DNA from: Candidatus Hermodarchaeota archaeon
GTDB taxonomy: Archaea; Asgardarchaeota; Lokiarchaeia; Sigyniarchaeales; SOKP01
DNA length: 42,554 bases
NCBI GenBank assembly: GCA_048885525.1
Contig: JBHLLP010000030.1
Location: 1 to 42,554 of the forward strand
Direction: 5' to 3'
This document shows, piece after piece, positions 9,702 through 13,214 of this stretch. How positions within the stretch are numbered: the stretch's first letter is position 1; each line of letters begins with the position of its first letter. A model generated the notes under the pieces. That model was given only the letters and a program-made list of their open reading frames with translations, was not told the origin of the DNA and ran no database searches. Made by a program: the position numbers and the translations under genes.

Positions 9702-10235
9702 TTAATGTGGCAGAAATCCCATATAATTTAATGCTTCTAAGATGATATTTTTACTTTCTTCAACGGTTTGTTTATCCGTTTCGACAATAATATCTGGGTC
9801 ATCAGGTTCTTCAAAAGGGTGGTCTATTCCGGTAAAATCCTTTATTTCTCCAGTTCTTGCTTTTGCATACATCCCTTTAATATCCCGATTTTCACATTCT
9901 TCAAGTGAACACTTTACATACACAAGAATGTAATCTCCAATCTCTTCTCGAGAATATGCTCTAATTTTATTATATGGTGATACAAAAGAAGCAAGAACAG
10001 CGACTCCATTACGAGTTAAAAGTTTAGCTACAAATGTTACTCTTTCAATGTTCATATTTCGGTCTTCTTCAGTAAATCCCAAGTCTTTTGTTAAGCTCTT
10101 TCTAACAATATCTCCATCAAGTCTTTCTACTTTCATACCTCTTGCTTTTAAATCTTCTGCTACTGCATTTGCAAGGACAGTTTTTCCTGAGCAAGGCAGT
10201 CCTGTAAACCATAATGTAAATCCTTTATGTTCCAT
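9702..10235 (-). CDS. cysC: Adenylyl-sulfate (APS) kinase
   Basis: WFTGLPCSGKT P-loop, LDGDIVR, LGFTEEDR, RDIKGMY, FTGIDHPFEEP. Confidence 0.96.
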   Translation of the reverse strand: MEHKGFTLWFTGLPCSGKTVLANAVAEDLKARGMKVERLDGDIVRKSLTKDLGFTEEDRNMNIERVTFVAKLLTRNGVAVLASFVSPYNKIRAYSREEIGDYILVYVKCSLEECENRDIKGMYAKARTGEIKDFTGIDHPFEEPDDPDIIVETDKQTVEESKNIILEALNYMGFLPH

Positions 10236-10256: not shown

Positions 10257-11651
10257 TTAAAAATCTATGATACTGCCTTCCATATCCTTAGGAATATCAA
10301 CTCCTAAAATTTTTAAAGATGTTGGAGCAATATCAAGTATACTCTTAATTCCTAAATTTTTCCCTACCCTTTTTGTAGGGTCATATAAAATATAAACACC
10401 AAACCAATCATGCACAGCGTCATCTGGTCCAGTATCATTTTCATCTAAATACATTGAATCATATCCAACTGTTCCGGCGGATCTCCAATTTAGATCATCA
10501 AAATAAACCATAAGATCTGGAGCGTCACCATTAATAATATTGAATAACTCCTCGGGTCTATAAACAATAGTGTCCATTGGATTTCCATTGTTGTCCTTTA
10601 TTGATTTTATTTTTTTTATAATTTTTTCTCTCATTTTTTCATAATCTTCTTGCTTTATAATCCCATGAGGTTCTCTCCCTTCAATATTAAGAAAGATTCT
10701 CGCGTAATATCCTCCCCAACCCCAAGCATAAGTATTATCCCAATCAATATCTGCATCTGCTAGTCTTGTTCTTGGTTTTGGTCTACTTTTAAACTTTAAT
10801 AACCCCAAACTTTCAAGAGCCATATTCACACATACCAAACCTTTCATAGCCTTAGCACCATGATCAGATACAATCATAACAAATGTTTTATTATCCAATA
10901 AATCTAATATTTCTCCAATTTCATGATCTAAATATTGATAATATTTCCTCATCTCTCCTTCAAACTCATTACTCGGTTCATATTTAGGGTGTTCTTTGTC
11001 GTAATACTTCCAAAAAGCGTGGTGAAATCTATCTAATCCGATAATTACAAATTTGAAATAATTCCAGTCTTTAGTCTGTATTAAATATTTGACAGTCTTT
11101 AATTGGATTTTCGTCATTTCATAGATTTCTTCCATTAAAACTTTCTTGTTTTCAACCCTAAAATTAGCATCTAAAATATATTTTCCCACATTTTGTTTAA
11201 TTTCATCTTTTAATTCTGGAGGGTATGTATAATTTGAGCTTATATCTGGTGTGATAAACCCTGATACGAGACATCCATTTATGGGTTGAACAGGATATGT
11301 TGGAGGGATTCCTAAAATACAAGATTTTAAGCCTTTTTCTGCTATTATATCCCAAACTTTTGGTTCTTTAATTTTGTAAGAAGTTGCAATCCAAAAGTCG
11401 TCATATGAATTCTCTTTTCTATGTCTAAAACCAAATAATCCTAAAGTTCCAGCTTTCTTACCAGTAGACATTACCATCCAAGCAGGAATGGTAATTGGGG
11501 GATCACATGTTCTTAATTTTCCATATCCTCCTTTTTCCATCATTTTCTTTATGTTAGGGCAATCATCCAAGAAATCTTCGAATAAAGTTTTGGGTGTTGC
11601 ACAGTCTAATCCAATAACTATCAGTTTCTTTTTATTTTTCATTATTACCAT
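10257..11651 (-). CDS. AlkP-superfamily (nucleotide pyrophosphatase/phosphodiesterase-like) metalloenzyme
   Basis: IGLDC, PPITIPAW (Thr nucleophile position), DRFHH, VSDHG, DAVH, DIAPT. No signal peptide seen. Start may be 11642. Confidence 0.88.
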   Translation of the reverse strand: MVIMKNKKKLIVIGLDCATPKTLFEDFLDDCPNIKKMMEKGGYGKLRTCDPPITIPAWMVMSTGKKAGTLGLFGFRHRKENSYDDFWIATSYKIKEPKVWDIIAEKGLKSCILGIPPTYPVQPINGCLVSGFITPDISSNYTYPPELKDEIKQNVGKYILDANFRVENKKVLMEEIYEMTKIQLKTVKYLIQTKDWNYFKFVIIGLDRFHHAFWKYYDKEHPKYEPSNEFEGEMRKYYQYLDHEIGEILDLLDNKTFVMIVSDHGAKAMKGLVCVNMALESLGLLKFKSRPKPRTRLADADIDWDNTYAWGWGGYYARIFLNIEGREPHGIIKQEDYEKMREKIIKKIKSIKDNNGNPMDTIVYRPEELFNIINGDAPDLMVYFDDLNWRSAGTVGYDSMYLDENDTGPDDAVHDWFGVYILYDPTKRVGKNLGIKSILDIAPTSLKILGVDIPKDMEGSIIDF

Positions 11652-11683: not shown

Positions 11684-12832
11684 TTAAGATACAAATGGAT
11701 TTTCGTATTGTAAGATTACTTTTGCAACTTCAGGACGCATAACTTCGGGATCTGGAGGATTTCCCGATTGTAACGCCAATCTTATTTCCGTTCCAGCAAA
11801 ATAATTCTGGAATTCAGGAGGATGGGGACAAATTTTATCATTTACCACGGAATCACACTTTGAACATTTAGAAAATGATCTAAACTTAATTGGTTCGATA
11901 CCTAAATCTGGAAATTTATCAAAAATATCATGAGCATCATAGGGTCCATAATAATCTCCGACTCCTGCGTGATCTCTACCTATTATAAGATGGTCACAAC
12001 CAAAATTCTTTCTTGTTATAGCATGGAAAACGGCTTCCTTAGGACCAGCATATCTCATTTCAGTTTCAAAAGTGCTTAATACTACTCTATTTTTTGGATA
12101 ATATTCTTTTATAAGGACTTTGTATGCTTCAATTATAACTTCATCTAGAAAATCACCTAATTTCTTTTTTCCAATAACAGGATTGATAAATAGACCATCT
12201 ACATAAGTTAACCCTGCTTTCTGAACATATTCATGCCCTAAATGAGGAGGATTTCTCGTTTGAAACGCAACAACTCTGTCCCAGCCTTTTTCTTTAAATA
12301 ATACTCTTGTTTCAATAGGTTTTAAATCTAAATCTGGGAAAGTTGCCTTTGGTTCATTAATTAAAAAAGTCTCACCCCCAATAAGTTTTTCTTTATAATT
12401 GAAGACGTTATTAACTCCAGGATGATTCTGATCTAATGTACCATATGTTTTTTTAGCAAATTCTTTTTTATCATAATTATAAATCGTCTCTACATTCATT
12501 AGTGCAATTGGAACTCCACTAGCGTTTGTAAGGATTATTTTATCATCTAATCCTATATTTTTAAGTTCTTCATTAGACACGTCCAGCGTAATTGGAAATG
12601 GCCAAACAACATTATTCTCTAGATACATAGTATCCAATACATAATGATAATCATTTTCATTCATGAATCCCTCTAAGGGGCTAAAAAGACCAAAGGAGAT
12701 GTTCTTAATCACTTTAAGTGTCTCTGGTTTCACTGCAATTTTCTCAAATTCATTAATCTCTCCTTTAATCCTTTCTTTTTCAAATTTTGGTAATTCCTTA
12801 TTTACTAATGTTCCACCATGTGGTTTTATCAT
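11684..12832 (-). CDS. sat: Sulfate adenylyltransferase (ATP sulfurylase)
   Basis: PHGGTLVN, FSPLEGFM, AFQTRNPPHLGHE, MRYAGPKEA, GRDHAGVG, C-terminal CxxC...CPH zinc site. Confidence 0.97.
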   Translation of the reverse strand: MIKPHGGTLVNKELPKFEKERIKGEINEFEKIAVKPETLKVIKNISFGLFSPLEGFMNENDYHYVLDTMYLENNVVWPFPITLDVSNEELKNIGLDDKIILTNASGVPIALMNVETIYNYDKKEFAKKTYGTLDQNHPGVNNVFNYKEKLIGGETFLINEPKATFPDLDLKPIETRVLFKEKGWDRVVAFQTRNPPHLGHEYVQKAGLTYVDGLFINPVIGKKKLGDFLDEVIIEAYKVLIKEYYPKNRVVLSTFETEMRYAGPKEAVFHAITRKNFGCDHLIIGRDHAGVGDYYGPYDAHDIFDKFPDLGIEPIKFRSFSKCSKCDSVVNDKICPHPPEFQNYFAGTEIRLALQSGNPPDPEVMRPEVAKVILQYENPFVS

Positions 12833-12886: not shown

Positions 12887-13126
12887 TCAATCAATATACC
12901 CTAAATCCCTTAACCTTTGTTTGACTTTTTCTTCTTCTTCCTTAGTAAACGCTTGTTTTGTTCGTTCCTCTTCTTCAATTGAAGATATAACTTGCCTAAG
13001 AACATAGGTAACATAACTAGATACAGAAGAAAATCCAGTTCCCTTCATTCGTTCCTTTATCTTTTCTACAAGAGGTTTAGGAATTGATACAGTAGTATAT
13101 TCTACCTTATGATCATCATCAGACAT
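12887..13126 (-). CDS. Ribbon-helix-helix (CopG/Arc-like) protein with acidic RLxxLGY C-terminal tail
   Basis: YTTVSIP beta-strand, helix, GFSSVSSYVTYVLR second helix; tail FTKEEEEKVKQRLRDLGYID. ATG 13126 preferred over TTG 13141. Confidence 0.85.
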   Translation of the reverse strand: MSDDDHKVEYTTVSIPKPLVEKIKERMKGTGFSSVSSYVTYVLRQVISSIEEEERTKQAFTKEEEEKVKQRLRDLGYID

Positions 13127-13188
13127 TTTTTCATGTACCAAATTTTTTCTATATGATTTTAGAATTTAATTATATTTAATTAATTATA

Positions 13189-13214
13189 ATTATAAACTTT
13201 TCTGATCTGAAAAG
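13189..13214 (-). promoter_or_regulatory. Candidate BRE-TATA promoter of the RHH-sat-AlkP-cysC operon overlapped by an 18-bp near-palindrome
   Basis: Minus strand reads CTTTTCAGATCAGAAAAG-TTTATAAT: purine-rich GAAAAG (13202-13197) directly before TTTATAAT (13196-13189), about 63 nt upstream of the RHH ATG. Confidence 0.5.

Follow-up and report, generated by a model that had tools for sequence, protein, structure and literature searches.

Ribbon-helix-helix (RHH) antitoxins and regulators such as Bacillus subtilis MazE (4me7), ParD, TacA, KacA and FitA join an N-terminal RHH core to a C-terminal segment that grips a partner. Their genes, like those of the effector-sensing RHH repressors NikR and MetJ, stand first in their operons and have a repeat array in their own promoters. 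A gene with the same organization is present in the stretch of DNA analysed here (the window), which comprises 42,554 nucleotides of contig JBHLLP010000030.1 of a Candidatus Hermodarchaeota archaeon (assembly GCA_048885525.1). It encodes a 79-residue RHH protein with a tyrosine-bearing tail, and it heads an operon that continues with genes for ATP sulfurylase (sat), an enzyme of the alkaline phosphatase (AlkP) fold and adenosine 5'-phosphosulfate (APS) kinase (cysC). Unlike the RHH antitoxins, this protein is predicted to partner a metabolic enzyme of the AlkP fold, and its tail is a module of that enzyme family itself.

We consider it somewhat probable that the RHH protein is an autoregulator at the head of the operon, that it supplies the tail module of the AlkP family in trans and docks it in the AlkP cleft, and that occupancy of this cleft by substrate feeds back on the operon. 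An RHH core with a partner-binding tail is a known architecture; new here is that a module of the partner enzyme's own family has moved onto the regulator of a sulfate-activation operon. The modelling suggests a link, undescribed so far, between a sulfation enzyme and the control of its own operon. We found no paper on a regulator of sulfate activation in archaea, on this RHH regulator or on its tail, and no function in the literature for the COG3379-like AlkP family or its tyrosine tail. The papers on sulfate use in M. thermolithotrophicus and in anaerobic methanotrophic archaea (ANME) mention neither the tail nor an RHH regulator.

Other described systems resemble the tail or the enzyme. DltX and PatA (PMC12148441), like the tail, have an invariant Tyr in a short C-terminal motif, fused or on a separate small protein, that is proposed to visit an active site. 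They differ in that an FxYxxF motif on a membrane microprotein handles an acyl group, whereas the present motif, LxxLGYh[DE] (h, hydrophobic), is on a soluble RHH DNA-binding protein and the group would be a putative sulfuryl. The tail itself reads LxxLGYID rather than FxYxxF, and the AlphaFold2 (AF2) model of the RHH protein contains no long hydrophobic segment. Agl30 and Agl31 (VNG1056C/VNG1057C) of Halobacterium salinarum are AlkP-superfamily proteins encoded in a glycosylation gene cluster; they are genetically needed for glycan sulfation and act, by the same genetics, as N-glycan sulfotransferases (PMC11980604). They provide a precedent for the operon AlkP as a transferase that consumes 3'-phosphoadenosine 5'-phosphosulfate (PAPS), but their resemblance is to S1 sulfatases and arylsulfatases rather than to PF01663, and no RHH partner has been reported for them. 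The nucleotide pyrophosphatase/phosphodiesterase (NPP) of Xanthomonas axonopodis (PDB 2gsn) shares the D/H metal-ligand motifs of the operon AlkP and has no tail module.

The tail and the enzyme that lacks it

An earlier note, made from the sequence alone, had claimed that the tail is on the RHH protein and not on the AlkP enzyme, and this proved correct. The features concerned are:

12887..13126, minus strand: tailed RHH gene, 79 residues (ATG at 13126, stop codon 12887-12889), heading the operon
12956..13126, minus strand: RHH core, residues 1-57 (extended segment YTTVSIP, helix 1, TGFSSVS turn, helix 2)
12890..12949, minus strand: tail module, residues 60-79, FT-KEEEEKVKQRLRDL-GYID (N-cap Thr, helix 62-75, Gly76, Tyr77)
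10257..11651, minus strand: tail-less AlkP-fold enzyme (PF01663; Pfam E = 9.9e-44), predicted receptor of the tail

The RHH protein ends ...FTKEEEEKVKQRLRDLGYID and then stops, and these 20 codons with the stop codon occupy 12887-12949. The open reading frame (ORF) with a TTG start spans 12887-13141 and encodes 84 residues; the ATG at 13126 gives 79 residues, a length matching that of the homologues. The AlkP enzyme ends ...KDMEGSIIDF with no tail, and because just 21 nucleotides separate its stop codon from cysC there is no room for a tail that was lost. All 38 operon-type AlkP orthologues likewise stop at the core.

Within the whole genome (G000; 3.58 Mb, 99.3% complete), the pattern R[LIVM]xx[LIVM]GY within six residues of the C-terminus was found in one of 4231 ORFs (ATG-initiated, at least 60 residues), and the pattern GY[LIVM][DE] at the very C-terminus likewise in one. 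The tailed end is a correct observation and no compositional accident. A word-indexed search identified 828 close homologues of the RHH protein, almost all of 79 residues. The best-scoring 120 are at least 85% identical to it; the named records among them come from Promethearchaeota, Thor-, Hod- and Heimdallarchaeota and are labelled as CopG or Arc/MetJ type. An exhaustive search for relatives gave 932 clusters at 50% identity.

Conservation is concentrated in the tail. In an alignment of 50 diverse RHH members (39-64% identical to the window protein), L72, G76 and Y77 alone are invariant, while L75 reaches at least 90% conservation. Of 150 proteins representing the 50%-identity clusters, 133 carry the pattern h-x-x-h-G-Y at their end. 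In every one of these 133 tails Tyr, and never Phe, comes after the Gly, which agrees with the Tyr conservation expected earlier. Because the Tyr is never replaced by Phe, its hydroxyl seems to matter. Just one or two residues follow the Tyr in 127 of the 133 tails (two residues in 77), as in the window protein, where the free C-terminus lies two residues beyond Tyr77.

The general pattern of the tail is [FY]-[ST]-K-E-E/D-E-E...R-L-[RK]-x-L-G-Y-h-[DE]. Together with the AF2 model, this would correspond to one capped helix, with a Ser/Thr N-cap and with L72, G76 and Y77 fitting a Schellman-type C-cap; the position of Gly76 is compatible with such a cap. A partnerless tail could have this form, namely a stable capped helix that shields the C-terminus or tunes solubility, or an amphipathic membrane-targeting helix. 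The fit of L72, G76 and Y77 to a C-cap, read from the sequence, would agree with this, as would the modelled helix 62-75, which stops before G76. C-terminal membrane-targeting helices also have a basic/hydrophobic pattern like that of the tail. Capping, however, leaves unexplained the invariance across archaea and bacteria, the strict distance from the Tyr to the C-terminus, the transfer of the module between unrelated folds and its restriction to sulfation loci, and the pattern occurs a single time in this proteome. We consider a partnerless tail very improbable.

Four known kinds of C-terminal element were considered for the tail and dropped. In the tail the Tyr is third from the end with a Gly before it, which does not fit the HbYX proteasome-docking motif, in which a penultimate Tyr comes after a hydrophobic residue. 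The tail motif is common in bacteria too and is confined to sulfur loci, and an ESCRT MIM1-like helix was set aside for this reason. A ribosomal-stalk-like tail for a CysN/EF1A GTPase was rejected since there is no CysN in the genome, and a MinD-type membrane helix since it leaves the invariant G-Y unexplained.

The tail module is present in cis on three AlkP paralogues of other Asgard genomes. One of these is P0273 (L031:5850-7466, Hodarchaeota, 539 residues), whose residues 510-538 are 52% identical to RHH residues 51-79 (E = 7e-8), the alignment reaching the C-terminus of both. The motif [YF][ST]xxEE..RL.xLGY[ILV][DEG] ends 99 of 120 homologues of P0273 (29-65% identical to it; source names include Anaerolineae and Acidobacteria bacteria), and the Tyr is found in 99 of 101 cis tails. 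Proteins of this kind are annotated as 'AlkP superfamily phosphohydrolase/phosphomutase'. In P0273 and its relatives the tail is thus part of the catalytic enzyme, whereas in the window it is on a separate 79-residue protein. These comparisons of sequence support the view that the RHH tail is a portable C-terminal module of the PF01663/COG3379-like AlkP subfamily, and not an idiosyncratic extension. The module is an acidic helix ending L-x-x-L-G-Y-h-(D/E)-COOH, which the cis enzymes carry behind a tether of roughly 30 residues.

The earlier note had described such tails as a common ending of AlkP-family proteins, directly after the D-x-x-G motif. The first part holds for PF01663/COG3379-like proteins (the 99 of 120 above). 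The second does not, as the cis tail ends about 50 residues beyond the D-x-x-G end of the core in the aligned examples. The proposal that the tail is supplied in trans is supported by the finding of the AlkP family's own module on the RHH protein and of a tail-less AlkP in the same operon. Single-sequence AF2 prediction of a cis-tailed AlkP was uninformative (mean pLDDT 38.6). AlkP paralogues encoded elsewhere in Thermoplasmatota genomes have C-terminal extensions that lack the LGY motif.

Predicted docking of the tail in the AlkP cleft

The complex was predicted from the AlkP enzyme (38-row alignment) and RHH residues 45-79 (50-row alignment). The complex score (ipSAE) was 0.87, 0.85 and 0.84 over three runs, and the best of three controls reached 0.04; control runs in which receptor or peptide was replaced by an unrelated one gave 0.02-0.04. 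Of solved complexes, 58 of 80 reach the mark used for this score, as do 2 of 110 mismatched pairs, figures that are only a rough guide here, as own alignments were used. The runs share at least 92% of their contacts, and the pLDDT of the partner is at least 72.

On the AlkP side, the interface comprises residues 53-54, 74-76, 88, 90-92, 119-120, 132-136, 139, 161, 163-165, 296-298, 312-315, 392-394, 407 and 410, and thus includes the nucleophile Thr54. On the tail side it comprises residues 57, 59-60, 63-65, 67-69 and 71-79. The surest contacts are those of V68 and L72 with AlkP residues 75, 76, 88 and 133-135, of Y77 with residues 74-76 (G74-F75-R76) and of I78 with residues 75, 76 and 312 (W312). 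Conservation is high at this surface: of its 33 residues, 20 show at least 90% conservation among orthologues, compared with about 23% of all positions. A position of the tail helix in the AlkP catalytic cleft, with the Tyr beside Thr54, is supported by these models. The earlier note had proposed that the Tyr would be found near the catalytic Thr, and the predicted interface with Thr54, with Tyr77 touching G74-F75-R76 (0.85, against 0.04 for the best control), agrees with it.

The enzyme itself has the residues expected of its fold. D207, H211, D263, H264 and H414 are invariant in the 38 orthologues, and T54 is at least 90% conserved. The nearest solved relative is the Xanthomonas NPP 2gsn, detected as a profile match (E = 9.7e-6); a phmmer search of AlkP against PDB sequences gave no match. 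Thr54 aligns with the nucleophile Thr of NPP, a position occupied by Ala in the variant entry 7mw8. F75 aligns with an Asn of the NPP active site.

The distribution of the two genes is also consistent with a partnership. Among 201 sampled Asgard genomes, 71 encode a tailed RHH protein, 56 an operon-type AlkP (called at E <= 1e-60) and 54 both; these are counts with no statistical test, taken over kin that are not independent. In the two genomes with AlkP but no tailed RHH gene, the contig ends about 1 kb away from the AlkP gene. Most genomes have the tailed RHH and AlkP genes on one contig and less than 4 kb apart. The expected co-occurrence of tail-less AlkP with tailed RHH genes is therefore found in 54 of 56 genomes, and both exceptions are at contig ends.

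Contact with the catalytic cleft might also mean that the Tyr takes part in the chemistry. By analogy with DltX and PatA, the invariant Tyr, on a flexible tether one or two residues from the C-terminus, could be covalently sulfated, with a putative sulfotyrosine as the intermediate. As a swinging arm, in cis in most of the family and in trans here, the transiently sulfated Tyr would hand activated sulfate from the PAPS-forming enzymes to AlkP-fold sulfotransferases; on the RHH protein it might also record the supply of PAPS, with DNA binding reading its sulfation state. If true, archaea and bacteria would possess a carrier or sensor system based on sulfotyrosine.

Several observations are in keeping with such a sulfated arm. 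None of the 133 RHH tails has Phe in place of the Tyr, and 99 of 101 cis tails have the Tyr as well. The spacing between the Tyr and the C-terminus is constant, acidic residues surround the Tyr, the tether is long in the cis forms, and the tail is predicted to reach the region of the catalytic Thr. The arrangement of a C-terminal Tyr motif in cis or in trans parallels PatA (cis) and DltX (trans), in which the Tyr is an acyl carrier (PMC12148441), and the sulfotransferases known by genetics in Halobacterium belong to the AlkP superfamily (PMC11980604). CysH works by a C-terminal Cys tail, and its homologue CysD natively ends ...RQGY-x. In addition, no PF00685 sulfotransferase was identified in the whole genome, and CysD, a CysH-like protein, the DHH phosphoesterase and the small sulfotransferase have no tblastn homologue there. 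Given the lack of PF00685, CysD, CysH and DHH homologues, AlkP is the sole visible PAPS user of this genome. A pure carrier, however, needs no DNA-binding domain, yet the RHH protein has one and a conserved operator-like array (see below), and a hydrogen bond from the hydroxyl would equally explain Tyr over Phe. We consider a sulfated arm quite unlikely.

Probable DNA binding and a candidate operator

The AF2 model of the RHH protein has a pLDDT of 84.7 (93 over residues 11-50) and consists of an extended N-terminal segment and helices 17-27, 35-57 and 62-75, with a short break before the last and a non-helical GYID after it. In a structural comparison (VIA-align) its neighbours are almost all RHH proteins, at Z of 4-5.9. 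These include the antitoxins MazE, KacA, ParD and TacA (Z 5.3-5.9), NikR (1q5v_A; Z 5.6, root-mean-square deviation 0.9 A over 46 residues), and also PutA, AmrZ, Arc and omega. A Foldseek search of the model against the PDB gave nothing at E <= 0.001. The turn between the two core helices, TGFSSVS, in which F32 and S34 show at least 90% conservation among the 50 relatives, fits the G-x-S/T/N turn of RHH proteins. This turn anchors helix 2 on the DNA backbone. A beta-alpha-alpha RHH fold for the 79-residue protein is supported by the model.

RHH repressors bind, as dimers, to phased repeats in their own promoters. Such an array was identified ahead of the RHH gene:

13167..13192, no strand assigned: operator-like array, three TAATTA half-sites at 10-bp phasing, starting 66 nucleotides upstream of the RHH ATG

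The first half-site overlaps a TATA-like element, TTTATAA (13190-13196). The threefold TAATTA array occurs once in the 3.58-Mb genome and not at all in five Markov-simulated genomes. Upstream of orthologous RHH genes, half-sites of the form T[AC]AT[TG][AG] with 3-5 nucleotide spacers form a threefold array in 14 of 23 distinct regions and a twofold array in 20 of 23, whereas the 906 control windows taken from these loci contain no array. Two GC-richer relatives have instead two copies of TAATG-N5/6-CATTA. We regard the TAATTA array as a candidate operator, based on a phylogenetic footprint and not on a binding assay. From the fold and the conserved array, the RHH protein probably binds DNA.

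A mechanism that would combine these features is as follows. The RHH protein would act as a DNA-binding autoregulator of the sat-AlkP-cysC operon. In the AlkP clade encoded between sat and cysC, the tail-less enzyme would obtain its tail in trans from the RHH protein, with the tail helix in the conserved cleft and with Tyr77 and Ile78 against G74-F75-R76 and W312, next to Thr54. The regulator's tail and the enzyme's substrates would then need one and the same cleft. Because they would compete for it, occupancy by a substrate (PAPS, 3'-phosphoadenosine 5'-phosphate (PAP) or the acceptor) would govern how much of the RHH protein is available to the TAATTA array. The resulting feedback would be of the trigger-enzyme or antitoxin type, with the RHH protein on the array over the TATA element.

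The data thus predict that regulator and enzyme meet in a specific contact at the catalytic cleft, and they supply a candidate operator. They bear on the role of the tail in the AlkP family, on the control of PAPS synthesis, and on whether AlkP-fold enzymes are the sulfotransferases missing from glycan loci like the present Asgard one.

Distribution of the tail and of the cassette

Outside Asgard archaea, 80 loci were fetched and the 73 with a recognisable tailed RHH ORF were counted. They are from Thermoplasmatota, Thermoproteota, Archaeoglobi, Thermococci, Altiarchaeales, Hadarchaeota, Methanosarcinales, Aminicenantes/Acidobacteriota, Dehalococcoidia and others. A sulfate-activation or sulfation gene lies within 6 kb of the tailed RHH gene in 70 of the 73. 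The gene directly 3' of it is sat (43 loci), a PF00685 sulfotransferase of about 190 residues (6), cysD (5), a DHH phosphoesterase (4), TauE (3) or AlkP (1). Within 6 kb, Sat was found in 45 loci, AlkP-like proteins in 38, CysC in 37, DHH in 24 and sulfotransferase in 17. The linkage of tailed RHH genes to sat, cysC and AlkP, on which the earlier reading depends, is thus strong. Unlike in type II toxin-antitoxin systems, there is no toxin gene near the tailed RHH gene in the window, and the neighbours in 70 of the 73 loci are sulfur enzymes. We conclude that the tailed RHH gene marks PAPS and sulfation operons generally, with the AlkP orthologue as a frequent, not universal, companion.

Ends that resemble the tail are also found on other proteins of sulfur loci. 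Archaeal CysD encoded beside tailed RHH genes ends ...MQKLRALGYM, and the Pseudomonas CysD of known structure (1zun) ends ...EEKKRQGY with one further residue, so a G-Y-h C-terminus is native to CysD. Ends of the form h-x-x-L-G-Y-h were identified on a DUF2061 membrane protein (L121:966-1217, plus strand; ...KKLRDLGYI) and on a CysH-like PAPS_reduct protein (L066:8554-9327, plus strand; ...KRLRDLGYS), so the G-Y-h end recurs on unrelated folds within sulfur loci. CysC proteins at some other loci end ...KLKELGYL. A search for longer fused RHH forms gave three proteins. One of them, P0271, is a 216-residue metagenomic APS kinase whose normal C-terminus continues into a linker and then a complete acidic tail (...YTKEEEEKVKQRLRDLGYI); here the tail module is naturally fused to CysC. 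The other two, the metagenomic proteins P0174 and P0272, were rejected as true fusions: each comes from a contig of about 1 kb and has the appearance of an assembly chimera (in one case a DnaB N-terminal domain with the RHH C-terminal half, in the other P-type ATPase/EF-like pieces with the tail).

Several of our results weigh against AlkP docking and autoregulation by the RHH protein. The Pfam RHH_1 model (PF01402) matches the RHH protein at 14.4 bits (E = 0.039), under its 20.5-bit cut-off, and the NCBIfam search gave a weak match to the N-terminal part of NikR and nothing more. We infer both DNA binding and the direction of regulation. The docking is the confidence of a model and not a measurement, and no like complex has been solved in the PDB, where the nearest relatives of AlkP are NPPs (E about 1e-5, by profile only). 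The model may transfer within-chain contacts that it has learned, as cis-tailed relatives are abundant in databases, and the result resembles the pass of a split protein. Even so, such contacts would come from cis-tailed relatives, so tail and cleft would belong together.

The gene neighbourhoods also count against an exclusive link to AlkP. The tailed RHH gene is present without an AlkP orthologue in 17 of the 71 Asgard genomes (e.g., RHH-sat-cysC and RHH-sat-DHH-ST-cysC), and many Thermoplasmatota loci have a PF00685 sulfotransferase in place of AlkP. As these loci keep the tailed RHH gene without an AlkP orthologue, AlkP is unlikely to be its sole partner. Sat is the steadier neighbour, in 45 of the 73 loci as compared with 38 for AlkP. 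The tail-like ends on CysD, the CysH-like protein, DUF2061 and CysC indicate that the receptor may extend beyond AlkP. With P0271, they point to a receptor or a chemistry shared across the sulfonucleotide pathway rather than specific to AlkP, and this is the main reason for our moderate confidence in AlkP as the partner.

The same observations can be read as evidence for another target. The tail would then be a helix that docks on Sat, CysC, the small sulfotransferase or a general pathway scaffold, or that oligomerises with a second RHH dimer so that the two bind DNA cooperatively, and the docking on AlkP would be an artefact of modelling. The constancy of Sat as a neighbour, the retention of the tail where no AlkP orthologue was found, the tail-like ends, the fusion in P0271 and a possible memory of cis-tailed relatives behind the model's pass are all compatible with this. 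Against it, the AlkP family itself carries the module (99 of 120 homologues), the tail-less operon AlkP is accompanied by a tailed RHH gene in 54 of 56 genomes, and the controls with unrelated receptor or peptide scored 0.02-0.04. We therefore regard a different target as unlikely and retain AlkP as the predicted receptor.

In the window, four minus-strand genes follow one another in the order tailed RHH, sat, AlkP and cysC, with intergenic gaps of 21 to 54 nucleotides. Pfam assigns the neighbours of the RHH gene as sat, AlkP, cysC and ABC-2 transporter genes. The remaining operon genes are:

11684..12832, minus strand: sat, homo-oligomeric ATP sulfurylase (PUA_2 and ATP-sulfurylase domains; Pfam E = 1.7e-84)
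9702..10235, minus strand: cysC, APS kinase (Pfam E = 2.4e-59), the protein ending ...IILEALNYMGFLPH

The operon sat-AlkP-cysC is PAPS-making. By tblastn, sat and the AlkP gene are single-copy in the genome, and cysC has one extra weak match (25% identity, contig C41). The end of the window CysC, ...IILEALNYMGFLPH, is tail-like, with Phe at the place of the invariant Tyr of the tail. In several other Asgard genomes, two or three tailed RHH paralogues flank a single sat-AlkP-cysC operon (G029:C17, G004:C4, G018:C33, G066:C9, G042:C151, G007:C11; L033-L038).

A cassette of tailed RHH, Sat or CysDN, AlkP or sulfotransferase, and CysC is common to many archaeal and bacterial phyla, and its composition varies. 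The CysDN-type cassette consists of the tailed RHH protein, CysD (PAPS_reduct family), a CysN-like GTPase of about 410 residues and a short AlkP-like protein (about 215-260 residues). It was seen at L085:4272-5069 (plus strand), the locus of the CysD that ends ...MQKLRALGYM, and also at L086, L094, L121, L123, L127 and L064; CysC was not detected near the cassette at L085 and like loci. Thermoplasmatota and some Asgard loci have the order RHH-sat-DHH-cysC-sulfotransferase or RHH-sat-DHH-sulfotransferase-cysC (L052:8395-9384 and L052:9978-10595, both plus strand; L047/L048), in which the DHH phosphoesterase and a PF00685 protein of about 190 residues stand at the place of AlkP. In such loci the DHH protein probably serves as a PAP phosphatase, the role it has in M. 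thermolithotrophicus (PMC10322725).

Bacterial genomes (Aminicenantes/Saccharicenans and 'Eubacteriales') encode the RHH-sat-AlkP-cysC cassette itself (L082-L084, L090, L091, L096, L097, L101-L103, L111, L124). The AlkP and Sat proteins of these bacterial cassettes are about 50% identical to the Asgard proteins, which suggests that the whole cassette has moved between domains.

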